DNA of 32,000 nucleotides from Erysipelotrichaceae bacterium MTC7 (GTDB lineage Bacteria; Bacillota_I; Bacilli_A; Erysipelotrichales; Erysipelotrichaceae), in contig LVZN01000002.1 of assembly GCA_001695645.1 (NCBI GenBank), positions 30,001 to 62,000 on the forward strand. The letters are read 5' to 3'. The notes below the pieces were generated by a model. It had not been told where the DNA came from. It searched no databases and worked only from the letters and a program-made list of their open reading frames with translations. Of this stretch, positions 13,771 through 25,596 are shown one piece after another. Every line of letters begins with the position of its first letter. Position 1 is the stretch's first letter. The translations under genes and the position numbers were made by a program.

Positions 13771-13848
13771 CGGCATCTATGACAATCTATGGAGACAATC
13801 ATGGCCAATCCGAGGGAAACAACAATTTCTTATTCGGAGGTAGACACC

Positions 13849-14310
13849 ATGAATGTAGTTTGGAAGTATCTGGACAAAAGAGCCGGGGCTGTCGCGGCGC
13901 TTAAGGATTTCGGCAGCATGAAGTTCATCATCGAGAACACGGATGATGAGATCAAAGCGGCGTATGACAAGATGTCGAGCGTCAGTGGCGTCCGTTATGA
14001 CGGGATGCCGCATGTGAGGAATCTCCACGCCGCCGAGGACAGGATCATCAATGCCATCGATGAGATCGATGTGCTGAAGGAGCGTTACAGGCAGGCGGTG
14101 GAATACATGGACTGGTTCGTTCCCGCATGGGAGCAGCTGTCGGAGGATGACCGCTATGTGCTGGACACCTTCTACAGTGAGGACAACGAGTACGGCAGCA
14201 GCGTGGTTGATGACATCGCGGAGTATTTCCATATCGAGCGGGCATCCGCTTACCGCAGGAAGAACCGTGCCATCGACAAGCTGACCGTCCTGCTGTTCGG
14301 CAAGCCTTAA
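13849..14310 (+). CDS. Putative late-gene transcriptional activator (RinA/ArpU-like, sigma-70 region-4-type HTH)
   Basis: ATG at 13849 is 8 nt after GGAGG (alternative ATG at 13789). C-terminal LSEDDRYVLDTFY...VVDDIAEYFHIERASAYRRKNRAIDKL is r4-like. Position immediately upstream of HNH/terS is typical of late activators. Confidence 0.5.
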   Translation: MNVVWKYLDKRAGAVAALKDFGSMKFIIENTDDEIKAAYDKMSSVSGVRYDGMPHVRNLHAAEDRIINAIDEIDVLKERYRQAVEYMDWFVPAWEQLSEDDRYVLDTFYSEDNEYGSSVVDDIAEYFHIERASAYRRKNRAIDKLTVLLFGKP

Positions 14311-14340
14311 ACCCTTGTCCACTTTCTGAGACGATTTATC

Positions 14341-14359
14341 TATAATGGCGTGTTATACT
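14341..14359 (+). promoter_or_regulatory. Candidate late promoter: tandem -10 elements (TATAAT and TGtTATACT) with no good -35
   Basis: TATAAT at 14341-14346 and extended -10 TGTTATACT at 14351-14359. Only TTGTCC at a 20-nt spacing upstream, which fits an activator-dependent promoter. Lies between the late-activator-like gene and HNH. Confidence 0.35.
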
Positions 14360-14439
14360 GATATCGTAAAATAGTGGGCGGAGCCTCATGGGAGAAATCC
14401 TGTGGGGCTTTTCTTATGCCCGGAAAGCGAGGTGGAAGG

Positions 14440-14787
14440 ATGCCAAGAAAACCAAAGCGTCCCTGCCGCTACCCCGGATGTCCGAACCTTACGGACGGTG
14501 TTTATTGCGAGGAACACGCAAAACAGATGGAACAGCACTACGAGAAGTTCCAGCGTGGCTACTCACCCGGCAAACGTTACGGACGTGCCTGGACACGCAT
14601 CCGTCACCGGTACGCAAGCAAGCATCCTCTCTGTGAGATGTGCATGAAAGAAGGTCGGTATGTTGCGGTCGAGGAGGTCCACCACATCGTGCCGCTGTCG
14701 GAAGGCGGAACGCACGATGAGTCAAACCTTATGAGCCTGTGCCGTTCCTGTCACGAGAAAATACACAAAGAACGTGGTGATCGATAA
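14440..14787 (+). CDS. Phage HNH endonuclease (packaging-associated type)
   Basis: MPRKPKRPCRYPGCPNL...; HNH core CEMC...VHHIVPLSEGGTHDESNLMSLCRSCHEKIH. Sits beside a P27-type terS, as in cos phages that need an HNH partner. Confidence 0.85.
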   Translation: MPRKPKRPCRYPGCPNLTDGVYCEEHAKQMEQHYEKFQRGYSPGKRYGRAWTRIRHRYASKHPLCEMCMKEGRYVAVEEVHHIVPLSEGGTHDESNLMSLCRSCHEKIHKERGDR

Positions 14788-14883
14788 GGACCCAGGGGCG
14801 GTCAAAATCTCTACGAGGGGCTTCTGCGGAAAACGGCGCGGGGTCACGTGTGCGAAAAAGGCGAAATCAAAAGGGTAATTAAA

Positions 14884-14911
14884 GGCGGCCGGTTCCGGCT
14901 GCTTCATTTTT
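14884..14911 (+). terminator. Possible intrinsic terminator/attenuator between HNH and terS
   Basis: GGCGGCCG (14884-14891) pairs with CGGCTGCT (14896-14903; two G-U pairs) around a 4-nt loop, then TCATTTTT. It lies only about 20 nt before the terS start, so it may be a regulated or leaky site. Confidence 0.35.
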
Positions 14912-14931
14912 GCGCGGAAGGAGGTGTGAAA

Positions 14932-15480
14932 ATGCCGACAAAATCCAACAACACAGGCGGTCGGGGCGGTGCGAGACCCGGTGCGGGAAGGAAGAAATCC
15001 GCTGTCAAGGAGAAAGCCGAGAACGGCAATCCGGGCGGACGCAGACTGGAAGTTCTTGATATTCCCGAAGTCGAGGGTGTCGATATGCCAAAACCGCATG
15101 ATTTTCTGTCAGCAGAGCAAAGGGACGGAAGTACCCTGCAGGCGGAGGAAATCTATAAGGAAACATGGGAATGGCTGCAGAAGGTCGGGTGCGCCGCAAA
15201 GGTGTCTCCCCAGCTTCTGGAGAGGTACGCCATGTGCAGTGCCAGGTGGATACAGTGCGAGGAGATGACGAACCGCATGGGATTCCTCTCCAAGCACCCG
15301 ACGACGCAGAAGCCGATACCGTCGCCGTTCATCAACATCGGCATCAACTACATGAACCAGGCGGTGCGGCTCTGGAACGAGATATTCCAAATCGTGAAGG
15401 AGAACTGCAGCACCGACTACGGGGATGTTTCCCCGCAGGATGACCTGATGGAGCGACTGCTCAGAGCAAGGAAAGGATAA
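14932..15480 (+). CDS. terS: Terminase small subunit, P27 family
   Basis: ATG at 14932 follows GGAAGGAGG. Gly/Arg-rich N-terminus GGRGGARPGAGRKK, then ...TWEWLQKVG...LLERYAMCSARWIQCEE..., as in P27-type TerS. Confidence 0.75.
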   Translation: MPTKSNNTGGRGGARPGAGRKKSAVKEKAENGNPGGRRLEVLDIPEVEGVDMPKPHDFLSAEQRDGSTLQAEEIYKETWEWLQKVGCAAKVSPQLLERYAMCSARWIQCEEMTNRMGFLSKHPTTQKPIPSPFINIGINYMNQAVRLWNEIFQIVKENCSTDYGDVSPQDDLMERLLRARKG

Positions 15481-15484
15481 TGAT

Positions 15485-16285
15485 ATGTTTGAAAAAGTAA
15501 ATCCCGCACATCCCGATAAACTGGCTGACCGCATCGCCGGGGCCATTGTGGATGCCGCATACAGAAAAGAAAGTGATCCGAAGATCGCCGTGGAAGTCCT
15601 GCTCGGTCACGGAATGTGTCACATTATCGCGGAGACTTCTGTACATATTCCGAAGGGCGAGATCACGGATATTGTCCGCCGTATCGCCGGGAATGTGAAA
15701 ATCAGCGTCCAGGAAGTTCCGCAGGACGGGCACCTGTCTAAGAATCAGTCTGCCGGGTTTCGCTGCGGTGACAACGGCATCTTTAAGGGCGTGCCTGTGA
15801 CGGATGAGCAGAAAAAGCTGACAAAGATCGCCGCAGATATCTACGGTCAGTACCACGCTGACGGCAAGTATATTCTGGACGGCGATAATCTGACCTTCTG
15901 CCAGAGCAATGCAGATACACAGCAGCTGAAGAAATCATATAAGAAAGCCGTGGTCAATCCGCTGGGTGACTGGACGGGCGGCACGGATGTGGACGCAGGA
16001 GCCACGAACAGGAAGCTCGGCTCTGATATGGGCGATTCCGTCACAGGCGGCGGTCTGCACGGTAAAGACCTGTCAAAAGCTGACGTGTCCGTGAACATCT
16101 GGGCATGGCTCAAGGCGCAGGAAACCGGCAAGCCCGTGGAGCTTTCCTGCTCCATCGGAGATGAGAAGGTCGGCGGCGTGCCGTATACGGAGATCGTAGA
16201 GACCGCGAGGAAATACATCGATGGTCTCGGCGGTTTTGAGAAATTTGCGGAATGGGGGTTGGTGCGATATGAAGACAACGACTGA
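15485..16285 (+). CDS. metK: Compact (266 aa) S-adenosylmethionine synthetase (MetK) homolog
   Basis: Aligned by eye to MetK signatures: AHPDKLADRIAGAIVDA (GHPDKxxDxISDAxLDA), CGDNGIFKG (GAGDQGxMFGYA), NPLGDWTGG...ATNRKLGSDMGD (NPTGRF..GGP..D.GLTGRKIIVDTYGG), GGGLHGKDLSKADVS (GGGAFSGKDPxKVDRS). About 120 aa shorter than canonical MetK. Confidence 0.7.
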   Translation: MFEKVNPAHPDKLADRIAGAIVDAAYRKESDPKIAVEVLLGHGMCHIIAETSVHIPKGEITDIVRRIAGNVKISVQEVPQDGHLSKNQSAGFRCGDNGIFKGVPVTDEQKKLTKIAADIYGQYHADGKYILDGDNLTFCQSNADTQQLKKSYKKAVVNPLGDWTGGTDVDAGATNRKLGSDMGDSVTGGGLHGKDLSKADVSVNIWAWLKAQETGKPVELSCSIGDEKVGGVPYTEIVETARKYIDGLGGFEKFAEWGLVRYEDND

Positions 16286-17528
16286 AATGCAGCTCGTTCC
16301 GATTGCAAAACTGGTACCTTATGTGAATAACGCGCGTACCCACTCCCCGGAGCAGATAAACAAGCTGCGATCCTCCCTCCGGGAGTTCGGCTTCATCAAT
16401 CCTGTCATTATCGACCGTGACTTTGGCGTTATCGCCGGCCACGGTCGTATTCTTGCGGCGAAAGAGGAAGGCATCACGGAAGTGCCGTGTGTCTTTGCCG
16501 ACCATCTGACAGAGGCGCAGAAGAAAGCGTATATCATCGCCGACAACCGCATGGCGATGGACGCCGGATGGGACGAGGAGCTTCTGCGTGTCGAGATCGA
16601 GGCTTTGCAGGGCATGGACTTCGATCCCATGCTCACAGGCTTTGATGAAAAGGAACTGGCTGACCTGTTTGGCACAGAGTCTGACAGCGAGGCGAAGGAT
16701 GATGACTTTGACCTGACCGCCGCATTGGAGAAAGCCGCCTTTGTGGAGCGGGGTGATATCTGGACAGTGGGCAGACACAGGCTGATGTGCGGAGACGCTA
16801 CGGACGCTGGAGATGTCGCATTGCTGATGGGCGGCAGGAAAGCCAACCTTATCGTGACAGATCCTCCGTATGGCGTATCCTTCAAGAGTTCCAGCGGTCT
16901 TACCATACAGAACGATTCCATGAAGAACGAGGAGTTTTACAACTTCCTGTTCGCTGCGTTCAAGTGTATGGCGGATGTGCTGGAGAAAGGCGGCGCGGCT
17001 TATGTGTTCCACGCGGACACCGAAGGCTTGAACTTCCGAAAAGCGTTCATTGACGCCGGGTTCCACCTGGCGGGCGTGTGTATCTGGGTGAAGAATTCCC
17101 TGGTACTTGGTCGCTCGGATTATCAGTGGCAGCACGAGCCGGTGCTTTACGGATTCCTGCAGAACGGCAAGCATCCGTGGTACTCCGACCGCAAGCAGAC
17201 CACCATCTGGAATTATGATAAGCCAAAACGTAACGCCAACCATCCGACATCAAAGCCGCTCGACCTGCTCGGATACCCTATCGGGAATTCCTCGCAGGAG
17301 AACTCCATCGTGATCGATACCTTCGGCGGCAGCGGCTCCACCATGATGGCATGCGAACAGATGAACCGCATGTGTTTCACTATGGAGCTGGATGAGAAGT
17401 ACGCATCGGTCATCCTCCGCAGGGCTGTGGAGAACGGCATTGATCCCGCTGACATTTATGTTGAAAGAAACGGAGAAAAAATGATGTACTCCGACCTCGT
17501 GAAAGAGGTGGAGGTTCCTAATGAGTAA
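16269..17528 (+). CDS. ParB-like nuclease domain fused to a beta-class N6A/N4C DNA methyltransferase
   Basis: N-terminal ParB/Srx-like segment (VPYVNNARTHS...IAGHGRILAA). Methylase motif IV IVTDPPYG precedes motif I DTFGGSGST (beta-class order). Overlaps metK-like by 17 nt and the next gene by 8 nt. Confidence 0.85.
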   Translation: MKTTTEMQLVPIAKLVPYVNNARTHSPEQINKLRSSLREFGFINPVIIDRDFGVIAGHGRILAAKEEGITEVPCVFADHLTEAQKKAYIIADNRMAMDAGWDEELLRVEIEALQGMDFDPMLTGFDEKELADLFGTESDSEAKDDDFDLTAALEKAAFVERGDIWTVGRHRLMCGDATDAGDVALLMGGRKANLIVTDPPYGVSFKSSSGLTIQNDSMKNEEFYNFLFAAFKCMADVLEKGGAAYVFHADTEGLNFRKAFIDAGFHLAGVCIWVKNSLVLGRSDYQWQHEPVLYGFLQNGKHPWYSDRKQTTIWNYDKPKRNANHPTSKPLDLLGYPIGNSSQENSIVIDTFGGSGSTMMACEQMNRMCFTMELDEKYASVILRRAVENGIDPADIYVERNGEKMMYSDLVKEVEVPNE

Positions 17529-19659
17529 ACTGACGCTTGGCAGCCTGTTTGACGGTTCCGGCGGTTTTCCTTTGGGCGGCTTGATTTCCGGCATCACTCC
17601 CGTGTGGAGTTCGGAGATCGAGCCGTTTCCCGTTATGGTGACTTCGAAGCGGCTGCCGTTTGTGAAACATTATGGTGACGTATCCACGTTAAAGGGCGGC
17701 GAGCTTGAGCCGGTGGATATCATCACCTTCGGCTCACCCTGCCAGGATATGTCCGTGGCGGGTAAAAGAGAGGGGCTGGACGGCTCCCGTTCAAGCCTTT
17801 TCTATGAAGCTGTCCGAATCGTAAAGGAAATGAGGTGTGCAACCAATGGAAAATATCCGAGATACATCGTCTGGGAGAACGTCCCAGGCGCGTTCAGTTC
17901 GAACAAAGGCGCGGACTTCCAGTCCGTCCTCGAAGAGATCTGCAGCGTCAAAGGATACGAGATTGATCCTGCTCGACCTGCGAAATGGCCAAACGCCGGA
18001 GAGATCGTGGCAGACGATTTCAGTCTCGCATGGCGGGTATTTGATGCTCAATACTGGGGAGTTCCCCAGCGAAGAAAACGTATCTACCTTGTCGCAGATT
18101 TTGCAGGCGGGAGTGCCGGAAAAATATTATTTGAGTCAGAAGGCATGTCTGGGTATACTCCGCAGGGCTTCCGCTCGTGGGAAGGAGCTGCCGGAACTGC
18201 TGAAGAAGGCGCTCATGCGTCAGGCATCGGCATAGACGGATACAACGGAGCTGTCTCTGATGAGGCGGCTACCCTTGGCGAGAACTGCGGGATGTCCACG
18301 GGCAGGAACGGCGTCATGGTCTTAAACGACCAGGGCGGCGACCGCATGGATGTGACGGAGGGAGTGACCTGTACGCTCCGCGCAGAGGCGCACCATCCTC
18401 CCTGCGTGATGGGAGCGGCGGGTTTCTGCACTGAGCATTCAGCGGATTCCAGGGGCATCGGATATGAAGAGGAGACTTCTCCCACGCTCCGTGCCGGGAC
18501 AGTTCCGGCTGCGGTCTATGAGAACCACAGCCAGGATACCAGATACACGGGGCCGCTTGATGTGGCTCCTACGGTGATGTCCACCTACGGAACGGGCGGC
18601 AATAACCAGCCGTTCGTGGTGGAGGACACTCCGAAAACGCTGAAGATCCGTTCCGGCTGTGAGGGTGGCGGTAAGGGCGCACTGATACAGGATAATAAAT
18701 CGGCAACGCTCGGCTGCAACAACGATCAGACCGTCTTTGTGCCGTTTGTAAAAGGCACCCGTCCACATTCTGCCGAAGAGGGACAGCAATGGAAGGAATC
18801 CGATGTGGCAAATACGCTGAATACCCATGACGTCGGCGAGGCAAGGTGCAACGAGCTGGCGGTTAAGGTCTACGGCATCTGCTCCAAGGATTCAAACGCC
18901 ATGAAGTCCGATAATCCGAAAAGCGGATTCTATGAGGCGGATACCACACGGACGCTTGACGCAAACGGCGGCAACCCCTCCTGCAACCAGGGCGGCATGG
19001 CTGTCGTGGCTCTTGAGGGCAACGGTGCAAGACCGTCCCATAAGGGCAGCGGCTATTCCGAGGAAGATGTCAGCTTCACGCTGAATGCTACAGAACAGCA
19101 TGCCGTAGCATACGGCATCGACCGTGCTACCTATAACATGGGGCAGAACGCCAAGTTCGGGATCGCGGTCGAGGAGGAAGTCGAGCCTACGATGGTGGCA
19201 AAGGGACCGGGCGCGGTCGGACAGCCTGTGTACCATTCCAGCAAGAGTTCATTTCACACGAATTTCTCAGATGAAGCTGTATCTGATACGCTTGTTGCCA
19301 CTGACTTCAAAGACCCGCCGACGGTATCGGAAGACCCATATTATATCGTGAGGAGACTTACTCCTACTGAGTGCGCAAGGCTGCAGGGCTTTCCCGAATG
19401 GTGGTGCGACGGGCTTGGAACGGACGAGCCGACCGAGGAGGAGATTGCTTTCTGGACGGAGGTGTTTGAAACGCATCGGAGGGTTATGGGGACATCCTCC
19501 AAGCCGAAGACCAGGAACCAGATCATCAAGTGGATCAAGGAGCCGCATTCCGACTCCGCAGAATATAAGATGTGGGGCAACGGCGTGGCTTTGCCGAATG
19601 TCTGCTTTGTGCTTTCGGGGATCGTGTACTATGCACAGTTCCCGGAATTTTTGTTGTGA
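17521..19659 (+). CDS. DNA (cytosine-5) methyltransferase, 712 aa, with a target-recognition region of about 400 aa made of repeated TL-type units
   Basis: Motif I LFDGSGGF, motif IV GSPCQDMS, motif VI ENVPG, motif VIII QRRKRIYLV, motif IX RRLTPTECARLQGFP, motif X GNGVALPNV. Between VIII and IX are 11 occurrences of (D/E)(D/E)xxxT(L/V/M). Confidence 0.9.
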   Translation: MSKLTLGSLFDGSGGFPLGGLISGITPVWSSEIEPFPVMVTSKRLPFVKHYGDVSTLKGGELEPVDIITFGSPCQDMSVAGKREGLDGSRSSLFYEAVRIVKEMRCATNGKYPRYIVWENVPGAFSSNKGADFQSVLEEICSVKGYEIDPARPAKWPNAGEIVADDFSLAWRVFDAQYWGVPQRRKRIYLVADFAGGSAGKILFESEGMSGYTPQGFRSWEGAAGTAEEGAHASGIGIDGYNGAVSDEAATLGENCGMSTGRNGVMVLNDQGGDRMDVTEGVTCTLRAEAHHPPCVMGAAGFCTEHSADSRGIGYEEETSPTLRAGTVPAAVYENHSQDTRYTGPLDVAPTVMSTYGTGGNNQPFVVEDTPKTLKIRSGCEGGGKGALIQDNKSATLGCNNDQTVFVPFVKGTRPHSAEEGQQWKESDVANTLNTHDVGEARCNELAVKVYGICSKDSNAMKSDNPKSGFYEADTTRTLDANGGNPSCNQGGMAVVALEGNGARPSHKGSGYSEEDVSFTLNATEQHAVAYGIDRATYNMGQNAKFGIAVEEEVEPTMVAKGPGAVGQPVYHSSKSSFHTNFSDEAVSDTLVATDFKDPPTVSEDPYYIVRRLTPTECARLQGFPEWWCDGLGTDEPTEEEIAFWTEVFETHRRVMGTSSKPKTRNQIIKWIKEPHSDSAEYKMWGNGVALPNVCFVLSGIVYYAQFPEFLL

Positions 19660-19661
19660 GT

Positions 19662-19751
19662 TATTCTACACCGAAATGTGCGGAAATCGCTTGATATTCC
19701 TGGGGTTCAGAGTGATTAATGTACTACCAAAAACAAAGGAGGTTTTCGCAC
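19662..19751 (+). promoter_or_regulatory. Promoter/leader cassette, copy 1 (most divergent)
   Basis: TTGATA (19691-19696), a 19-nt spacer, then TG-A-TTAATG inside TTCAGAGTGATTAAT (19706-19720). AAAGGAGG RBS, ATG at 19752. Confidence 0.5.
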
Positions 19752-20468
19752 ATGGAAATCAGGTACAACGTAACAGGCGCACAGCGCAAGGAACTGGTAA
19801 AGGCCATCGCCGATACCACGGGAGCAAAGGCAAAGTACATGGGAATGCCCACGGCAGCCTACGAGATCGACTACTTCACGGTAACCAAGGACGGAATGCT
19901 CATCTTCGATGACAGAGCGGACAGCGAGGAAGTGGAGCAGGTGCTTGAGGCCATCGCCGCCGCAGGGTTCGACTGTGAGCCGCAGGACGGAGAGGATTCG
20001 GAGTTTGAGGAAGTATCCGAAACCGAAGAGAACGCACCACAGGCGGCCACAGACGGGCTTACGGTGGCGGTTCCGAGGGACAGCCTTTCGGACGCCGCCA
20101 TTGAGAACCTGCAGAGGATCGTGGATTCCAAGGCGGCGCTCATGAAAAAGGCAATCGGCACGGACAGCCTTCCGATTGAAGTGACTGACGAGAAGGTATC
20201 CTTCCCCTGGTTCACGGAGATGGACGGCGATTCCGCAAGGGCATACACGCACCTTGTCTCCGCACTCTGCGAGATGGCGAGGAACGCCAAGCGAGTGACC
20301 GCCACGGAAAAGGAAGTCGACAACGAGAAGTACGCATTCCGCTGCTTTCTCCTGCGTCTGGGCTTCATCGGTGCTGAGTACAAGACCGAACGTAAAATCC
20401 TGCTGAAGAACCTCACGGGCTCCTCGGCTTTCAAGAACGGAGGTACTGACCATGAGATTTCCGAGTAA
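19752..20468 (+). CDS. 238-aa protein: apparent catalytically gutted paralog of the downstream amidoligase (shared N-terminal strand-helix and C-terminal module, acidic linker replacing the core)
   Basis: C-terminal KYAFRCFLLRLGFIGAEYKTERKILLKNLTGSSAFKNG versus amidoligase KYAMRTWLLRLGFIGEEFATARDFLTRNLSGDTAFRHG. N-terminal EIRYNVTGAQRKELVKAIADTTG resembles amidoligase VEVEMNSIKRSKAAKIAADFFG. No HIHIG-type core. Confidence 0.6.
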   Translation: MEIRYNVTGAQRKELVKAIADTTGAKAKYMGMPTAAYEIDYFTVTKDGMLIFDDRADSEEVEQVLEAIAAAGFDCEPQDGEDSEFEEVSETEENAPQAATDGLTVAVPRDSLSDAAIENLQRIVDSKAALMKKAIGTDSLPIEVTDEKVSFPWFTEMDGDSARAYTHLVSALCEMARNAKRVTATEKEVDNEKYAFRCFLLRLGFIGAEYKTERKILLKNLTGSSAFKNGGTDHEISE

Positions 20469-20688
20469 AGAGATTGTGGATCGTATCCGCAAACAGTACC
20501 CTGTCGGCTGCCGGGTAGAACTTGTGCAGATGGACGATGCCCAGGCTCCGCCAATCGGCACGAAAGGAACAGTCACCGGAGTGGACGATACCGGCTCCCT
20601 CCTCATGCGGTGGGACAACGGCAGTGGACTGAACGTGGTCTACGGCGAGGATATCGTAAGGAAGGTTGATGATTTGAGTGACCAATAA
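20452..20688 (+). CDS. DUF4314-like small protein (78 aa)
   Basis: GCRVELVQMDDAQAPPIGTKGTVTGVDDTGSLLMRWDNGSGLNVVYGED matches my memory of the DUF4314 SH3-like module common in Firmicute mobile elements. GGAGG RBS. Confidence 0.55.
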   Translation: MRFPSKEIVDRIRKQYPVGCRVELVQMDDAQAPPIGTKGTVTGVDDTGSLLMRWDNGSGLNVVYGEDIVRKVDDLSDQ

Positions 20689-20986
20689 GATTCTTTCGGA
20701 TTTCTTCTACGGCAACATCGTGCCGAACGAGAAGCAGTTTGACCGCAATTCGGAATTTGGCAGAGCGGCAGACGAACTGGCCAAGGAGGAAGAGAAGCTC
20801 CGGACAATGCTGGACGACAACACGCTGGCATTACTTGACAGGATGATACAGCTGCAGGGAACTGTTACGGGCATGACCGCAGAAGGGTACTTCATTGACG
20901 GATTCCAGACAGGATTCCGAATTGCATTGGCAGTCCTGTATGAGGGAGAAAAGCCCTTCCTCAAAGCGGTATCCGAGGGGACATAA
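20678..20986 (+). CDS. Small helical protein of the YGNI-P-x-E ... GF-x-x-GF-R family common in Clostridia mobile elements
   Basis: GTG start at 20678. FFYGNIVPNEKQF...EEEKLRTMLDDNTLALLDRM...YFIDGFQTGFRIAL pattern. I believe this is a catalogued DUF but am unsure of its number. Confidence 0.5.
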   Translation: MTNKILSDFFYGNIVPNEKQFDRNSEFGRAADELAKEEEKLRTMLDDNTLALLDRMIQLQGTVTGMTAEGYFIDGFQTGFRIALAVLYEGEKPFLKAVSEGT

Positions 20987-21136
20987 TCTACACAATTCAT
21001 GCCGGTTTTACGGGCGGATATTCGTGTACATTATGGCGAGAAATAACTTGATAAAAGTGTGCTTCAGAGTGATATATAGACACACCGAAGGGAACGAAAC
21101 CCTCGGAAAACAAAGGATTTCAAGGAGGCACACACC
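20987..21136 (+). promoter_or_regulatory. Promoter/leader cassette, copy 2
   Basis: Imperfect palindrome TACACAA (20989-20995) / TCGTGTA (21022-21028). TTGATA (21048-21053), a 19-nt spacer, then TG-A-TATATA within TTCAGAGTGATATAT (21063-21077). AAGGAGG RBS, ATG at 21137. Confidence 0.55.
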
Positions 21137-22087
21137 ATGAACGCAAGGACAGAGAGACAGATTACCGAGATGAAGAACCAGACCATCGGGGTCGAGGTCG
21201 AGATGAACAGCATCAAGAGGAGCAAGGCAGCGAAGATTGCCGCCGACTTCTTCGGAACAGGCAGATACGAGAACACAGCAAGCCGCAACGGGTACTACAC
21301 CTGGTCGGCTTGGGACAGCGAAGGTCGCGAGTGGAAATTCCAGAGGGACGTTTCCATCAGCGGACCGGACGATGAAAAATGTGAGATGGTCACGCCGATC
21401 CTTACCTACGGCGATATCGAAACCCTTCAGGAACTTTGCAGACAGCTTCGACACGCAGGCGCAAAGAGCGATGCCAGCCGGGGCTGCGGAGTCCACATCC
21501 ACATCGGAGCGAACGGTCACACGCCGCAGACGCTCCGCAACCTCGCAAACATCATGGCAAGCCATGAGAGTCTGATCGCCGAGGCTTTGAAGCTCGACCG
21601 CTACCGCATGGACAGATACTGCCGCACGGTGGACCCGAACTTCCTGCAGGCGGTCAACCGCAAGAAGCCTAAGACCATGAGCCAGCTTGCGGACATCTGG
21701 TATACCTCGCAGGGAGCGAGCTACGGCAGGACGCAGCACTACAACGACAGCCGCTACCATATGCTCAACTACCATGCGACCTTCACGAAGGGCACCATCG
21801 AGTTCCGGCTCTTCCAGTTCGATGAGCCGACAGCGGAGCGCAAGGGCGGCATCCATGCAGGACAGCTGAAGAGCTACATTCAGCTTTGCCTCGCACTCAG
21901 CCAGATGGCAAAGGACGTGCGGACGGCAAGCCCGAAACCGCAGCAGAACGAGAATCCGAAATACGCCATGAGAACCTGGCTTCTCCGCCTCGGATTCATA
22001 GGAGAGGAATTCGCAACGGCGAGGGACTTCCTTACCCGCAACCTTTCCGGGGACACGGCATTCAGGCACGGCAGAGCCGCCGCTTGA
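21137..22087 (+). CDS. Amidoligase (Amidoligase_2 / glutamine-synthetase-like fold family)
   Basis: IGVEVEMNS N-terminal strand, W-x-F-x-RD-x-S, CGVHIHIG, GTIEFRLFQ: the signature order I recall for PF12224-type amidoligases of phages and conjugative elements. Confidence 0.75.
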   Translation: MNARTERQITEMKNQTIGVEVEMNSIKRSKAAKIAADFFGTGRYENTASRNGYYTWSAWDSEGREWKFQRDVSISGPDDEKCEMVTPILTYGDIETLQELCRQLRHAGAKSDASRGCGVHIHIGANGHTPQTLRNLANIMASHESLIAEALKLDRYRMDRYCRTVDPNFLQAVNRKKPKTMSQLADIWYTSQGASYGRTQHYNDSRYHMLNYHATFTKGTIEFRLFQFDEPTAERKGGIHAGQLKSYIQLCLALSQMAKDVRTASPKPQQNENPKYAMRTWLLRLGFIGEEFATARDFLTRNLSGDTAFRHGRAAA

Positions 22088-22167
22088 AGGACTTAGGTTA
22101 AATGCCCTGCCTTCTGACCGCTTCGGCGGTCTTAAGGTGGTAGAAGGACAAGTAACCTAAGTCCTTC
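22086..22167 (+). other. Structured 82-nt intercistronic element (15-bp perfect outer stem, inner stem, UUCG-capped hairpin)
   Basis: GAAGGACTTAGGTTA (22086-22100) is the exact reverse complement of TAACCTAAGTCCTTC (22153-22167). Inner CCTTCT (22110-22115) pairs with AGAAGG (22142-22147). GACCGC-TTCG-GCGGTC at 22116-22131. No downstream U-tract. Confidence 0.5.
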
Positions 22168-22186
22168 AGAAAGGACGGTAACGACT

Positions 22187-22660
22187 ATGGCAAAGAGATA
22201 CTACATCGCTTACGGCAGCAACCTCAACGTTCCGCAGATGCGGATGCGCTGCCCACGCGCCACGATCCTCGGAACGGCGAACCTTACGGGCTGGGAGCTG
22301 CTTTTCAAGGGAAGCAAGACAGGCTCCTACCTCACGATTGAGGAATGCGAAGGCGGCACGGTTCCCGTGGTGATCTGGGAAGTGACGGAATCGGACGAGG
22401 CGGCTCTTGACCGCTACGAGGGGTTTCCCACCTTCTACTACAAGAAGGACATCAAGCTGAAGTACAAGGGCATCCGAACGGGAAAGCGCAGGACGGTGAC
22501 GGCGTTCGCCTACATCATGCACGAGGAGCGTCCCATCGGTGTTCCGAGCAATTTCTACATGAGGACTTGCCTTGAGGGATACGACACCTTTTACTTCGAC
22601 AAGAACATTCTGATCGATGCTTACGATAAATGCAGGGAGGTATGCGGCCATGAAGGATAA
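22187..22660 (+). CDS. Gamma-glutamylcyclotransferase (GGCT / AIG2-like) family protein
   Basis: YYIAYGSNLNVPQMRMRCPRATILGTANLTGWELLFKG... and ...ALDRYEGFP..YYKK are classic AIG2/GGCT N-terminal and central motifs. Confidence 0.8.
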   Translation: MAKRYYIAYGSNLNVPQMRMRCPRATILGTANLTGWELLFKGSKTGSYLTIEECEGGTVPVVIWEVTESDEAALDRYEGFPTFYYKKDIKLKYKGIRTGKRRTVTAFAYIMHEERPIGVPSNFYMRTCLEGYDTFYFDKNILIDAYDKCREVCGHEG

Positions 22661-22850
22661 TGTGATAAGGATGGCGGTCTGCCCGCTGTGCGGAAAGAAC
22701 TACCACGGCGCTCCGGCCCTTTCGAGAACGGATAACAAAACGCTCATCTGCCCGGACTGCGGAACAAGACAGGCGCTCCAGTCCATCGGCGTGGATGCCG
22801 AGGAGCAGGAACAGATCATCGAGACGATCCACCGTCACACGCAGGAGTAA
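22650..22850 (+). CDS. Small 4-Cys zinc-ribbon protein (66 aa)
   Basis: ATG at 22650 is 9 nt after GGGAGG and overlaps the GGCT stop. CPLCGK...(20 aa)...CPDCG. Confidence 0.6.
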   Translation: MKDNVIRMAVCPLCGKNYHGAPALSRTDNKTLICPDCGTRQALQSIGVDAEEQEQIIETIHRHTQE

Positions 22851-22974
22851 TATACACAATTCCTGCGGTGGATATTTGTGTAGATTATGCCTTGGAAATC
22901 TACAGAAATAGCTTGCTATTATCGTCGTTCAGAGTGATATATGTACATACCAAAACGAACGGAGGATAACCACC
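22851..22974 (+). promoter_or_regulatory. Promoter/leader cassette, copy 3
   Basis: Palindrome TACACAA (22853-22859) / TTGTGTA (22876-22882). TTGCTA (22913-22918), a 19-nt spacer, then TG-A-TATATG within TTCAGAGTGATATAT (22928-22942). GGAGG RBS, ATG at 22975. Confidence 0.55.
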
Positions 22975-23451
22975 ATGATGAACACGAACAACAGCTATTT
23001 TGAAGAGATGAAGCGCATCGGCTACGCATGGGAAGAGGCACAGGTCGAACGGAAGAACCGCAAGCAGCAGATCATCGACACCCTCGGCTGGGACAGCGAG
23101 GAACTGAAAGCCTGGTACGAAGAGGACAAGGCTGCGGTTTTCCCCTTCCCACAGGGTGCAAGCAAAGCCTACCGCGCATGGGCAGGCAGCATCAGCCGCA
23201 AGGAGGACGAGGTCGAGATGGACGATTTCCTTTGGGAAAAGGAAGTACACGACTTCATCGACACGCTCCGCAGGGCGGGCATTCAGACCTTTGTTTACAC
23301 CAACCAGTCCACAGCGGTGATGGAGAACCTCCACGCCTTTGCCGCAGAAGGTTGCACGATGGACGGGCTTTGCACCATCACTCGGCACGAAGACCGCTGG
23401 GGCGATGAGGAGCCGACCGAGGTCATGGGCATCCGGTTCAGCGTGAACTGA
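22975..23451 (+). CDS. Hypothetical protein (158 aa)
   Basis: Own promoter cassette and RBS. Believable composition. No family recognised. Confidence 0.6.
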   Translation: MMNTNNSYFEEMKRIGYAWEEAQVERKNRKQQIIDTLGWDSEELKAWYEEDKAAVFPFPQGASKAYRAWAGSISRKEDEVEMDDFLWEKEVHDFIDTLRRAGIQTFVYTNQSTAVMENLHAFAAEGCTMDGLCTITRHEDRWGDEEPTEVMGIRFSVN

Positions 23452-23454
23452 GGG

Positions 23455-23595
23455 TGTAAACCACACAATTTCCCCTTCGGATATTTGTGTAGATTATAGA
23501 TCGGATTTTTACAGAAATGACTTGCTATTATTGCCGTTCAGAGTGATATATGTACATACCGAAAGGGAAAACAAAGCAAACGGAGGACAAAGACC
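23455..23595 (+). promoter_or_regulatory. Promoter/leader cassette, copy 4
   Basis: ACACAA (23463-23468) / TTGTGT (23485-23490). TTGCTA (23522-23527), a 19-nt spacer, TTCAGAGTGATATAT (23537-23551). GGAGG RBS, ATG at 23596. Near-identical to copy 3 over about 100 nt. Confidence 0.55.
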
Positions 23596-23874
23596 ATGAC
23601 AATTAACGATGCAATGAGAACCTACAGACTGCCGAACCCCACCACGCCAGAGGACTTGGAATGCCGCTGGAGCAAGGTGCTGAACTTTGGAGACAAGGTG
23701 CTTCTTGCTGGGTATTACTACAACGGGCAGAACAAGCCTTCCTACTTCGGAGCGGTTTACGAGTACCTTGAGGACGGCAGGCACGACTGCGAAAGCACCA
23801 TCGGGCTTTATGCGGCAAGCGAGGTCGAGTTCGAGGATGATGGCCACGCGATTGCCTGGGCGATGCAGCAGTAA
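23596..23874 (+). CDS. Hypothetical protein (92 aa)
   Basis: Own promoter cassette and RBS. No family recognised. Confidence 0.55.
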   Translation: MTINDAMRTYRLPNPTTPEDLECRWSKVLNFGDKVLLAGYYYNGQNKPSYFGAVYEYLEDGRHDCESTIGLYAASEVEFEDDGHAIAWAMQQ

Positions 23875-23985
23875 GATACAGAAAAACGAATAACCAAAGG
23901 GACGAGCCGGAAGGCTCTGTCTCTCGTACAGATAGATTTATGGACGGCTTGCCATTGGCAGGTCATTTTTTATGCCATTCGGGAG

Positions 23986-25596
23986 GTGAGCATTACGAGA
24001 AAACTGAAGAAATACAAACCGACACAGCTTATGGCGAAGACCTCCCGCTATGACAAGGAGGCTGCGGATTATGCCGTCATGTTCATCGAGTCGCTCTGCC
24101 ACACCAAAGGCACATGGGCGGGAAAGCCCTTTGAACTGATCGACTGGCAGGAGCAGATCATCCGTGACCTTTTTGGTATCTTGAAGCCCAATGGTTACCG
24201 CCAGTTCAACACGGCATACATCGAGATACCGAAGAAACAGGGCAAGAGCGAGCTTGCGGCGGCGGTGGCACTCCTTCTCCTCTGCGGAGACGGCGAAGAA
24301 CGCGCCGAGGTGTACGGCTGTGCCGCCGACAGGAACCAGGCAAAGATCGTCTTTGATGTGGCTGTGGATATGGTGCGGTTCTGCCCGGCACTTGCCAAGC
24401 GCGTGAAGATACTGGAGTCGCAGAAAAAGATAACCTATCTGCCAACCAACAGTTCCTACCAGGTGCTGTCGGCTGATGTGGCAAACAAGCACGGTTTCAA
24501 TACCCACGGCGTTATTTTTGATGAGCTGCACACGCAGCCGAACAGAAAGCTGTTTGATGTCATGCTACAGGGCTCCGGCGATGCAAGGATGCAGCCGCTT
24601 TACTTTCTGATCACCACAGCCGGGAATGATACGAATTCCATCTGCTATGAGGTGCATCAGAAAGCCTTGGACATCCAAGCAGGACGGAAGGTCGATCCGA
24701 CTTTCTATTCCGTTATCTACGGTGCGGCGGAGGATGAGGACTGGACGGACCCGGAGGTCTGGAAGAAAGCAAATCCCTCTCTCGGCATCACGGTCGGTAT
24801 CGACAAGGTGAAAGCGGCGTGTGATTCCGCACAGCAGAATCCTGGCGAGGAGAACGCATTCCGGCAGTTAAGACTCAATCAATGGGTGAAACAGTCGGTC
24901 AGATGGATGCCGATGGACAAGTGGGATGCCTGTGCGTTCCCTGTTTCCGAGGATGATCTGGAGGGTCGTGTCTGTTACGGCGGTCTTGACCTCTCGTCCA
25001 CAACGGATATTACGGCGTTCGTTCTGGTGTTCCCGCCGCAGGATGAGGAGGATAAATACAGCATCCTTCCGTTCTTCTGGATACCGGAGGAGACCGTTGA
25101 CCTTCGTGTAAAGCGAGACCATGTTCCCTATGATCTGTGGGAGCGGCAGGGACTTCTGATGACCACGGAGGGCAATGTTGTTCACTACGGATATATTGAA
25201 AAATTTATCGAGCGGCTGGGAGAGCGGTTCAACATCCGCGAGATCGCATTTGACCGCTGGGGAGCGGTGCAGATGGTGCAGAACCTTGAGGGCATGGGAT
25301 TTACGGTCGTTCCGTTCGGACAGGGATTTAAGGATATGTCCCCGCCGACCAAGGAACTGATGAAGCTGACTTTGGAGGAGAAGATCGCACACGGCGGGCA
25401 TCCCGTCCTGCGGTGGATGATGGACAACATCTTCATCCGTACCGATCCAGCCGGAAACATCAAGGCAGACAAGGAAAAATCGACAGAAAAGATCGATGGC
25501 GCGATTGCGACCATCATGGCACTCGACCGGGCGATCCGGTGCGGCAATGAATCTCACGAGAGCGTGTATGACTCCCGTGGGATTTTGTTTATATGA
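23986..25596 (+). CDS. terL: Terminase large subunit (Terminase_1 type)
   Basis: ...AADYAVMFIESLCHTKGTWAGKPFELIDWQEQIIRDLFG..., Walker A-like IEIPKKQGKS, Walker B FDELH, and a C-terminal RNaseH-like nuclease region with ...DKIDGAIA. Start is uncertain: the GTG at 23986 sits inside the only SD-like GGGAGGTG, and the next in-frame ATG is at 24031. Confidence 0.9.
   Translation: MSITRKLKKYKPTQLMAKTSRYDKEAADYAVMFIESLCHTKGTWAGKPFELIDWQEQIIRDLFGILKPNGYRQFNTAYIEIPKKQGKSELAAAVALLLLCGDGEERAEVYGCAADRNQAKIVFDVAVDMVRFCPALAKRVKILESQKKITYLPTNSSYQVLSADVANKHGFNTHGVIFDELHTQPNRKLFDVMLQGSGDARMQPLYFLITTAGNDTNSICYEVHQKALDIQAGRKVDPTFYSVIYGAAEDEDWTDPEVWKKANPSLGITVGIDKVKAACDSAQQNPGEENAFRQLRLNQWVKQSVRWMPMDKWDACAFPVSEDDLEGRVCYGGLDLSSTTDITAFVLVFPPQDEEDKYSILPFFWIPEETVDLRVKRDHVPYDLWERQGLLMTTEGNVVHYGYIEKFIERLGERFNIREIAFDRWGAVQMVQNLEGMGFTVVPFGQGFKDMSPPTKELMKLTLEEKIAHGGHPVLRWMMDNIFIRTDPAGNIKADKEKSTEKIDGAIATIMALDRAIRCGNESHESVYDSRGILFI

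Follow-up and report, generated by a model that had tools for sequence, protein, structure and literature searches.

An accessory gene module between terS and terL in Heliusvirales-type phages

We analyzed the genes that lie between terS and terL, encoding the small and large terminase subunits, in a 32,000-nucleotide (nt) stretch of the Erysipelotrichaceae bacterium MTC7 genome (contig LVZN01000002.1, positions 30,001 to 62,000 of the forward strand; this whole stretch is referred to below as the window). The interval is probably a lineage-typical accessory module of Heliusvirales-type temperate siphophages of Firmicutes, composed of two mechanistically separate halves. Half 1 (positions 15485 to 19659) is a DNA methylation block whose most likely role is protection of the phage against host restriction. 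Half 2 (19682 to 23971) would be a hyperplastic array of autonomous cassettes, each opened by an island-specific promoter-like element; counter-defense, host takeover, and lysogenic conversion are all possible roles for it.

Gene content and conservation of the terS-terL interval

Window open reading frames (ORFs), combined with Pfam and PHROG profile searches, place the end of terS at 15480 and the start of terL near 23986, with about 8.4 kb between them. These coordinates and the accessory content agree with an earlier reading of the DNA (the initial annotation), although the 13 ORFs counted there could not be reproduced: we find 11 credible genes, all on the plus strand. The interval and its immediate flanks are laid out as follows (aa, amino acids).

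14374-14787, + strand: HNH endonuclease (Pfam HNH, 57.9 bits), directly 5' of TerS in nearly all relatives
14848-15480, + strand: ORF of the P27-type TerS, probable start at 14932 (Terminase_4, 26.1 bits)
15485-16285, + strand: compact MetK-like S-adenosylmethionine (SAM) synthetase, 266 aa (S-AdoMet_synt_N only, 45.7 bits; phrog_1569, 1e-68)
16269-17528, + strand: ParB_N and N6_N4_Mtase fusion, the ParB-methylase (phrog_498, 6e-178; PADLOC MTase_II, 5e-151)
17521-19659, + strand: orphan C5 methylase, 712 aa (DNA_methylase in two pieces; PADLOC PDLC03715, 2e-252)
19682-19751, + strand: cassette copy 1, core 19690-19720, promoter-like, and 5' untranslated region (UTR) with an AAGGAGG ribosome-binding site
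19752-20468, + strand: AmiP, predicted dead amidoligase paralog (no Pfam match; phrog_2443, 8e-69; hhalign against Ami, 99.96)
20452-20688, + strand: DUF4314 protein (PF14192, 109 bits), with a 17-nt overlap with the AmiP stop, translationally coupled to AmiP
20678-20986, + strand: DUF6809, small helical protein (PF20648, 72.8 bits)
20987-21136, + strand: cassette copy 2, core 21047-21077, with an upstream hairpin, the promoter-like core, and a 5' UTR
21137-22087, + strand: Amidoligase_2 (Ami), a GCS2/glutamine-synthetase-like carboxylate-amine ligase (PF12224, 184.7 bits)
22081-22180, + strand: rod-like RNA hairpin at the Ami-GGCT junction (fold and covariance model)
22187-22660, + strand: GGACT/AIG2 gamma-glutamyl cyclotransferase-like protein, GGCT (PF06094, 49 bits; AIG2_2, 27.7 bits)
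22617-22850, + strand: small Zn-ribbon protein, probable start at 22650 (phrog_2945, 2e-24; weak zinc-ribbon Pfam matches)
22851-22974, + strand: cassette copy 3, core 22912-22942 (motif match)
22975-23451, + strand: DUF7698 protein (PF24753, 50.4 bits)
23452-23595, + strand: cassette copy 4, core 23521-23551 (motif match)
23596-23874, + strand: Nmad4 (nucleotide modification associated domain 4) protein (PF18756, 81.9 bits)
23898-23971, + strand: leader before terL, with hairpin 1 at 23898-23924, then CTCTCGTAC, then a GC-rich hairpin and T-run at 23946-23971
23986-25596, + strand: TerL (TerL_ATPase and TerL_nuclease), with the portal gene next

All window proteins were mapped onto 80 related loci from IMG/VR, whose TerL sequences are 84 to 95% identical to that of the window (L numbers below designate individual related loci), and prevalence was counted in the 53 of them with both TerS and TerL. 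In none of the 53 are terS and terL adjacent; the spacing is 2.2 to 8.8 kb (median, 5.6 kb), and the order of the genes in between is constant throughout. The ParB-methylase (96%), the DUF4314 protein (94%), and AmiP (91%) are near-universal. The compact MetK is present in 47% of the loci, with a full-length MetK inside the interval in 3 of the 53, and a C5 methylase is present in 45 to 53%. Ami (42%), GGCT (40%), and the Zn-ribbon protein (43%) always occur as a trio, and DUF7698 and Nmad4 are found in 21% each and DUF6809 in 8% (at the tblastn level). The window carries almost the full gene set and lies near the upper size limit of the interval. A few otherwise intact relatives (L062 and L064) are missing AmiP and DUF4314.

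Across the lineage, the interval forms a module whose core is fixed and whose periphery varies; it was not acquired by the window phage alone. The initial annotation had called it an accessory island; that it is peculiar to this phage is contradicted by the 53 relatives with the same interval in the same order and by its presence in Streptococcus and Erysipelothrix phages. It had also set an unvarying gene content among relatives against its own reading; the relatives do share the core genes at this position, and they differ in the periphery. GC content and skew are flat over 15 to 24 kb which, together with the occurrence of the interval in all relatives, rules out a recent insertion or foreign island.

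The closest DNA match is Acutalibacteraceae phage NatCom_11578 (PV036426): 67% of the queried region aligns with 81% DNA identity, and the TerL proteins of this phage and the window share 94% identity. All of the best-matching named phages are listed under Ca. Heliusvirales. The window also encodes Heliusvirales markers (a DUF2800/PDDEXK exonuclease, an Enc34-type single-stranded DNA-binding protein, a family A DNA polymerase, and VapE and SNF2 helicases), alongside further Heliusvirales-type genes (HNH, TerL, and portal). By TerL identity and marker genes, the window phage is classified as Ca. Heliusvirales-type. NatCom_11578 has the same gene order, HNH-TerS-MetK-ParB methylase-C5 methylase-AmiP-DUF4314-DUF6809-Ami-GGCT-Zn ribbon-Nmad4-TerL, to which the window adds one more cassette, that of DUF7698. 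Two phages whose hosts are in culture, Streptococcus phage Javan191 and Erysipelothrix phage phi1605, share this layout, and the AmiP family, named "virulence(-related) protein" by RAST and NCBI, extends to Gardnerella and Clostridium phages.

The block can also be placed differently. In the more distant NatCom_19828 (TerL 63% identical), it lies between HNH and an adjacent terS-terL pair, and in L005 the entire block is upstream of a neighboring terS-terL pair. The NatCom_19828 layout indicates that the block is old and that the position of terS relative to it varies between sub-lineages. As to whether terS and terL are normally adjacent, which the initial annotation assumed, the comparison returns both arrangements: split in 53 of 53 loci and adjacent where the block lies upstream of the pair. 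We also considered that the window TerS might not be a real TerS; its full-length alignment with the P27 TerS of L005, itself scoring 107 bits on Terminase_4, rules this out.

Heliusvirales-type phages were found in ~82% of people sampled (de Jonge 2024, PMC11283538), which places terS-terL accessory DNA among the commonest of the human gut virome. The module is standard equipment of a very common human gut phage family, with tractable relatives among the prophages of Streptococcus, Erysipelothrix, and Enterocloster.

A DNA methylation block adjoining terS

The three genes of half 1 are packed tightly behind terS, with a 4-nt gap between terS and MetK, a 17-nt overlap between MetK and the ParB-methylase, and an 8-nt overlap between the ParB-methylase and the C5 methylase, bearing out the coupling proposed in the initial annotation. 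The MetK-like protein, with 266 aa, is ~120 residues shorter than a typical methionine adenosyltransferase (MAT; ~385 aa) and scores below the family cut-off (TIGR01034, 50 bits versus 309), its N-terminal domain alone passing. Four MAT motifs were compared (HPDK, GxGDxG, GGPxxDxGLTGRK, and GGGAFSGKDxxKVDRS), and all four have recognizable counterparts in this protein (HPDK, GDNG, GG..D.G.T.RK, and GGG..GKD..K.D.S) that align with solved MATs. Among relatives, the presence of MetK goes along with that of a C5 methylase (odds ratio, 5.3; P = 0.006; uncorrected for phylogeny).

Both DNA methyltransferase domains are intact (N6_N4_Mtase, 93 bits; DNA_methylase, 139 bits). The C5 methylase matches the PADLOC "orphan methyltransferase" model PDLC03715 end to end (2e-252). 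Pfam and PADLOC searches found no restriction endonuclease domain among the 11 genes or their flanks, where the sole nearby nuclease is the packaging-type HNH. The catalytic N- and C-terminal parts of the C5 methylase flank a ~370-aa variable region in which ~10 T[LVM] motifs, resembling those of target recognition domains, are spaced 25 to 45 aa apart between residues 250 and 600; ~5 would be expected by composition. BLAST detected no internal repeats in this region. The C5 methylases of relatives range from 456 to 746 aa, and block indels of 30 to 80 aa among them are restricted to the variable region.

Classical multispecific phage C5 methylases are ~440 to 500 aa long and have up to five characterized specificities; the window enzyme, with 712 aa and ~10 candidate motifs, is larger, and its specificities are predicted. 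The architecture appears to be an enlarged form of that seen in Bacillus-phage multispecific methylases. Like M.SPRI, M.Phi3TI, M.H2I, and M.phiBssHII (references in PMC8936443), the window enzyme is an orphan, phage-encoded methylase whose catalytic ends surround an enlarged variable region with TL-type motifs in apparent tandem, and the simultaneous protection from many restriction enzymes presumed for those enzymes is proposed here for the window enzyme as well.

Relatives carry other modification genes in half 1, namely extra C5 methylases, a phosphoadenosine phosphosulfate (PAPS)-reductase-like gene, and HNH-AP2 homing endonucleases. The PAPS-reductase-like gene separates the ParB-methylase from the C5 methylase at L002 5577-6392 and at the same place in L030, L032, and L040, which hints at additional DNA-modification chemistry in that slot in one sub-lineage.

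We propose that half 1 is transcribed and translated together with terS. The compact methionine adenosyltransferase would supply SAM locally, the ParB-N6/N4 methylase and the orphan C5 methylase would use it to methylate replicated phage DNA at many motifs near packaging, and progeny DNA would thereby be shielded against restriction on entering the next host. This self-methylation reading is essentially published already: a C5 methylase, in 67% of Heliusvirales genomes, and a SAM synthetase, in 58.9%, are the commonest auxiliary genes of the group, and a role against restriction has been suggested for them (de Jonge 2024, PMC11283538). If true, it would explain the movement of temperate phages among restriction-rich Clostridia, and a methylase of ~10 modules would be a useful tool with a clear methylome signature.

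Promoter-like cassettes and a terminator-like hairpin in half 2

The repeated element of half 2, CTTGMTA-N9-TTCAGAGTGATWWAT, occurs in exactly four copies in the 32 kb of the window (at 19690, 21047, 22912, and 23521) and in none of 100 shuffled versions of it. All four copies are on the plus strand in intergenic DNA, 40 to 75 nt 5' of a ribosome-binding site and start codon. As the initial annotation had observed, each heads its own unit: AmiP-DUF4314-DUF6809, Ami-GGCT-Zn ribbon, DUF7698, and Nmad4. The consensus is Aaat..CTTGcTAtt...ggc.TTtAGAGTGATaTATgtAc, with a core that can also be written CTTGCTA-N9-TTYAGAGTGATATAT, and a TGATATAT box is present in each copy. Judged by its sequence, the cassette resembles a -35 box followed by a TG-extended -10 box. 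In copy 1 the -10-like box overlaps the ATG at 19719, suggesting that the true start of AmiP is at 19752, behind AAGGAGG, rather than at 19719.

A search of 85 related loci, allowing up to 2 mismatches, yielded 82 matches to the cassette core on the plus strand and 0 on the minus strand. Nearly all are intergenic and inside the interval, most commonly 5' of AmiP and next most commonly 5' of later units. A scan of 50 kb of NatCom_11578 found one copy, 5' of AmiP, and the four copies of the window are the most seen. Two window proteins could be the reader of the island-specific cassette or of a late promoter: a protein with sigma-70 region 4 (1956-2627, + strand) and, just 5' of HNH, a 173-aa protein (13789-14310, + strand) with no Pfam match and, by inspection, a sigma-/ArpU-like C-terminal helix-turn-helix.

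Comparisons with individual relatives suggest that the cassette copies are the joints of indels and permutations. Against L001 there is a one-unit indel (the DUF7698 unit) whose ends fall within cassette copies 3 and 4; against L008, all the DNA that separates DUF4314 from Nmad4 is deleted, with the junction in a cassette; and in L036, the Nmad4 and DUF7698 units stand in reverse order. Judging from these breakpoints, the repeats would double as recombination joints through which units are gained, lost, and reordered between phages. The distal slot of other relatives holds a BspA-type leucine-rich-repeat (LRR) protein, a MerR-TipAS regulator, an alpha/beta hydrolase, or DUF7678.

The leader of terL consists of a hairpin, CTCTCGTAC, and then a GC-rich hairpin with a T-run ~20 nt 5' of the TerL ribosome-binding site. 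The hairpin and T-run at 23946-23971 look like an intrinsic terminator. Similarly, 52 of 78 distinct terL-upstream regions of relatives have a hairpin and a run of at least 5 T's ~20 nt 5' of the TerL ribosome-binding site, with stems that covary, and the leader is kept upstream of TerL in L001, L006-L008, L014, L016-L023, and others. This conserved putative terminator, just before terL, would close the whole half 2 array. Cassette transcripts would then stop short of terL, leaving terL dependent on upstream read-through, and the structural genes may be controlled at the leader by read-through or antitermination. The initial annotation had envisaged one co-expressed late unit; with its own promoter-like motif and conserved terminator-like hairpin, half 2 looks moron-like and not obviously late.

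The end of a five-codon mini-ORF (ATGCCATTCGGGAGGTGA) at 23971-23988 and the GTG start of terL overlap in the sequence GTGA. The mini-ORF also contains the GGAGG ribosome-binding site, and together these features suggest termination-reinitiation coupling or a different terL start.

Proteins encoded in half 2

Ami scores 184.7 bits on PF12224 against a cut-off of 22, covering model positions 1 to 244 of 245. The VEVE, HIHIG, and EFR motifs can be read in its sequence, and the active site is apparently intact. GGCT aligns with human GGCT and keeps the YGSNL motif and the catalytic Glu.

AmiP is homologous to Ami through the catalytic core (hhalign probability, 99.96). HIHIG is changed to TVAVP and EFR to SFP, so that the catalytic His, Glu, and Arg are replaced, and AmiP lacks both the VEVE (N-terminal metal-binding) strand and a 60-residue insert. 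The dead paralog postulated in the initial annotation is thus upheld: by its motifs AmiP is a dead enzyme, twice as widespread as the live Ami. An impression from BLASTP that AmiP shares nothing but a C-terminal tail with Ami was overturned by the profile-profile alignment. The two proteins have this 68-aa helical tail in common (43% identity; KYAFRCFLLRLGFIGxEYKxxRKxLLxNLxGxSAF), at residues 245 to 312 of Ami and 163 to 230 of AmiP, outside the Pfam amidoligase domain. The same tail stands alone in unrelated hypothetical proteins of Corynebacterium and Peptoclostridium (plasmid matches H31 and H32) and, by eye, resembles a SAP/HeH-type helix-hairpin motif.

The protein labeled "DUF4314-like" in the initial annotation is a genuine DUF4314 member (109 bits). 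AlphaFold2 predicts one helix and a five-stranded SH3-like barrel (predicted local distance difference test [pLDDT], 90). In the PDB, the model matches best the SH3-like domain at the C terminus of biotin protein ligase (E = 9e-4), followed by Pif1 2B, CPH, and Tudor domains. Biotin protein ligase is a carboxylate-amine ligase, and this C-terminal domain caps it on the substrate side. Among cluster representatives of DUF4314, the nearest 150 are 68 to 393 aa long, and the viral structural matches are small stand-alone proteins. DUF4314 is fused to the Zn-ribbon protein in L068 and L042, suggesting that the AmiP-DUF4314 and Ami-GGCT-Zn-ribbon units are functionally linked. Nmad4 is the direct 5' neighbor of TerL in Streptococcus phage Javan191, as it is in 21% of relatives.

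PDB sequence searches with Ami, DUF4314, DUF7698, and Nmad4 returned nothing significant. The profile searches suggested in the initial annotation connect the methylases to PADLOC models, and none of the non-methylase proteins has a match among the PADLOC defense models. A plasmid collection gave 2 DUF4314 matches and 8 weak Ami matches, leaving the conjugative-element context uninformative. We found no published functional study of Nmad4, DUF4314, or PF12224 and no biochemistry of any amidoligase-AIG2 member in the literature. Two candidate ideas were rejected: Pup-like tagging via a conserved C-terminal Glu/Gln of the small proteins, as their C termini are not conserved, and Nmad5 as an anti-defense precedent, as the Tmn paper has Nmad5 as a trigger and not an inhibitor.

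A covarying RNA hairpin between Ami and GGCT

The 99 nt between the Ami and GGCT genes fold as a long rod-like hairpin (-50.8 kcal/mol; z = -7.7). A covariance model built on five relatives finds matches at the Ami-GGCT junction only, with 42 to 116 bits on the plus strand and at most 37 bits on the minus strand. In an alignment of 21 sequences, 94.5% of cells pair, compared with 27 to 55% in slid controls. Fifteen of the 29 pairs are changed on both sides (44 cells), and the observed covariation was reached by 0 of 500 shuffles; the alignment was fitted to the model, which favors structure. The apical stem is wholly different between relatives (GACCGC/GCGGTC, CCCGC/GCGGG, GGCAG/CTGCC, and CCCCAC/GTGGGG), and the conserved 3' strand is GGUGGUAGAAGG. 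RNAalifold found no structure on a MAFFT alignment in which the apical hairpin was misaligned, a discrepancy that the covariance-model alignment resolved. No Rfam match at E ≤ 1 was obtained for 14000-24500 on either strand.

The hairpin is also present at L001 10467-10566, L005 9936-10027, L059 7998-8089, and ~60 other loci, and it nearly always leads into a GGCT gene. Viral contigs were screened with a 14-mer scan and then with the model, which recovered 40 more copies; 34 of these lie within 55 nt 5' of a same-strand GGCT gene, and another 3 have an amidoligase gene on one side and a DUF4314 gene on the other. That the structure forms in the transcript is indicated by conserved G-U pairs and by the asymmetry of the two strands. 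An integron attC-like or miniature inverted-repeat transposable element-like DNA repeat was rejected, as the hairpin occurs once per genome, at the same junction, with strand-specific G-U pairs. Our best guess is that it could set the ligase:cyclotransferase ratio, either as a site of RNase III-type processing or by binding a protein. In L045 (2572-3084), two hairpin copies surround an inserted promoter cassette and ORF, and it looks as if the hairpin was duplicated by the insertion.

Interpretation of the module and alternative explanations

For half 2, family chemistry suggests that Ami would make an ATP-dependent gamma-glutamyl-type amide on an amine substrate and that GGCT would remove it as 5-oxoproline, giving a writer-eraser pair. 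The structured RNA between the two genes would set the ratio of the enzymes, and AmiP together with the SH3-like DUF4314 protein would be a non-catalytic binder of the same kind of target. A bolder version, which we regard as decidedly speculative, holds that Ami, the RNA, GGCT, and the Zn-ribbon protein write and erase a gamma-glutamyl-type tag on a host protein or metabolite while AmiP-DUF4314 is a decoy sequestering the same target, the whole forming a new class of host-takeover or counter-defense effectors exchanged by promoter-cassette recombination.

Several points weigh against the account of the two halves given above. We found no expression, methylome, or phenotype data for the window phage or its relatives. 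The T[LVM] motif count is just ~2 to 3 times the composition expectation, which tempers the case for multispecificity, and the ParB-methylase may have a role in packaging or replication instead of, or besides, protection. Unless the two enzymes act at different times or on different substrates, a writer-eraser pair would cycle futilely. More than half of relatives have AmiP but no Ami, so AmiP cannot simply be an Ami partner; its AlphaFold2 model is mediocre (pLDDT, 65), with no Foldseek match at E ≤ 0.001. The promoter call is made from sequence, with a spacing of ~19 nt between the -35-like and -10-like boxes and a -10 box without the canonical final T, suggesting that a phage-specific sigma factor or activator may be needed. 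Finally, the co-occurrence statistics carry no correction for phylogeny.

The initial annotation favored a different account, in which all 11 genes form one counter-defense toolkit, co-expressed late with the packaging genes as unfused polyvalent proteins and possibly delivered with the DNA, and in which the amidoligase and DUF4314 units neutralize host immunity. A tight one-strand cluster beside packaging genes fits this account, as do the extra C5 methylases and PAPS-reductase-like gene at the same place in relatives and the correlation of Ami with C5 methylase (odds ratio, 9.5; uncorrected for phylogeny). Its link to polyvalent proteins stands for one part of the module, since ParB and N6A methylase domains are hubs of the polyvalent domain network (Iyer 2017, PMC5512222), but amidoligase, DUF4314, cyclotransferase, and Nmad are absent from the main text of that paper. 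Polyvalent proteins have 2 to 15 effector domains per polypeptide; apart from the ParB-methylase fusion, the ten other window genes are single-domain, and DUF4314 proteins are short or stand-alone, as described above. Half 2 also carries a promoter-like motif of its own, specific to the island, and ends in a terminator-like hairpin ahead of terL, and its proteins are without PADLOC matches. AmiP and DUF4314 are near-universal, unlike the patchy pattern usual for anti-defense genes, and relatives use this slot for a BspA-type LRR protein, MerR-TipAS, and a hydrolase, which are not counter-defense genes. On balance, we consider a single toolkit unlikely. Somewhat unlikely, in our judgment, is that the half 2 cassettes are morons, that is, lysogenic-conversion genes transcribed by host RNA polymerase from the prophage to the benefit of the lysogen, with Ami and GGCT, for example, remodeling an envelope amine to block superinfection. 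Envelope-amine remodeling against superinfection is reportedly the original prediction made for phage amidoligases by Iyer and colleagues in 2009. Apparent insulation by promoter and terminator and the variable presence of units favor this explanation, most Heliusvirales are temperate, and conversion-type cargo (LRR surface protein, MerR-TipAS, and alpha/beta hydrolase) occupies the same slot in relatives, with toxin-antitoxin and resistance genes between terL and portal in Javan191 and phi1605. A passage of a Clostridium clostridioforme prophage paper likewise cites Iyer 2009 for the idea of envelope remodeling and superinfection block. The Ami-GGCT-Zn ribbon, DUF7698, Nmad4, and DUF6809 units show moron-like presence and absence (8 to 43% of relatives, with breakpoints inside cassettes), but AmiP-DUF4314 (91 to 94%) does not fit this pattern, being conserved like core genes over hosts from Streptococcus to Oscillospiraceae and Gardnerella. 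Further, the promoter motif departs from a clean sigma-A consensus and is found nowhere else in the phage, and inspection of the protein sequences revealed no obvious signal peptide or membrane segment.

Two further explanations assign the genes to DNA modification or to packaging. Ami, GGCT, and Nmad4 might build and trim a hypermodified DNA base, such as an amino-acid adduct, making the whole interval one DNA-modification pathway. Nmad4 is named after its association with nucleotide-modification genes, amidoligase genes co-occur with thymidine-hypermodification clusters in viral contigs, and the units adjoin methylases, a ParB domain, and, in relatives, the PAPS-reductase-like gene. The window, however, encodes no dUMP/dCMP hydroxymethylase, TET/JBP, 5-HMUDK kinase, or aGPT-Pplase and thus provides no reactive base handle, Ami-GGCT is present in relatives without a C5 methylase, and Nmad4 and Ami-GGCT vary independently; we therefore think this pathway very unlikely. 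The position and near-universality of AmiP and DUF4314, present in 91 to 94% of relatives and always between terS and terL, would be explained if they were structural or packaging cofactors, such as an accessory of terminase or of cos recognition, and the SH3-like barrel of DUF4314 is a fold also of nucleic-acid enzymes, e.g., the Pif1 2B domain. A packaging role is nevertheless highly improbable given that these genes have their own promoter-like cassette apart from the terS operon, are absent from the few otherwise intact relatives L062 and L064, lie in L005 with the whole block upstream of an adjacent terS-terL pair, and derive from an enzyme fold without known packaging role.

Relation to known systems

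A 2009 computational study by Iyer and colleagues is said to have described the amidoligase-AIG2 pairing in Firmicutes and to have predicted a peptide- or gamma-glutamyl-type tag that is added and removed. As in that neighborhood, the amidoligase of the window adjoins an AIG2/GGACT gene on a Firmicute mobile element; the window differs in having a fixed Zn-ribbon partner, a covarying hairpin, and a more widespread dead paralog with DUF4314. Half 2 is a compact entry point, ready for comparative genomics, to a question standing since 2009, namely, the role of phage amidoligase-cyclotransferase pairs, and it offers new handles in a dead paralog more conserved than the enzyme, a covarying RNA element, and an island-specific promoter.

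The cassettes recall the PeSL cassettes of T4-type phages, hairpin-plus-promoter motifs in a hyperplastic segment (Arbiol 2010, PMC2839356; Comeau 2014, PMC4122927). Both are repeated intergenic elements with a stem-loop and promoter motif and with breakpoints inside them. The window cassettes differ in sequence, promoter type, and phage group (Gram-positive temperate siphophages), with 1 to 4 copies per genome in one interval. Lacking a T4-type early promoter and a T4-like myovirus setting, they are, by sequence comparison, a PeSL analog and not a member. They would extend PeSL promoter-mediated gene shuffling from T4-like to temperate Gram-positive phages.

The window also resembles P1 Dar and polyvalent proteins in having ParB-like and methylase domains beside late or virion genes, presumably protecting incoming DNA. 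Those proteins are large multidomain polypeptides packed into the virion, whereas the window has the ParB-methylase fusion only, known from its genes alone.

Already known are the amidoligase-AIG2 pairing in Firmicutes and the prevalence of MetK and C5 methylases in Heliusvirales. New are the fixed AmiP and DUF4314 core, the promoter-like cassette that would double as recombination joint, the apparently terminator-insulated layout, the covarying RNA, and the size of the putative recognition array of the methylase. A term search of the main text of de Jonge 2024 (PMC11283538) gave 0 matches for amidoligase, and we met nothing there on the DUF4314 pair, the promoter cassette, the RNA hairpin, or the terS-terL split, for which no term search was made.

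Other features of the window and its relatives

The TerL-portal junction is a second insertion hotspot in relatives, seen in Javan191, phi1605, and several IMG/VR loci, the last with 1 to 3 kb between the two genes. Between terL and portal, Javan191 carries a DinJ-Doc toxin-antitoxin pair (L087 10683-11317) and phi1605 an aminoglycoside nucleotidyltransferase (L088 12269-12763); unlike in these two phages, terL and portal are adjacent in the window.

Near the start of the window, positions 233-1402 on the minus strand encode a 389-aa protein with CTD11, the C-terminal domain of ABC-three-component (ABC-3C) conflict systems, probably a prophage-borne defense or lysogeny-side gene.

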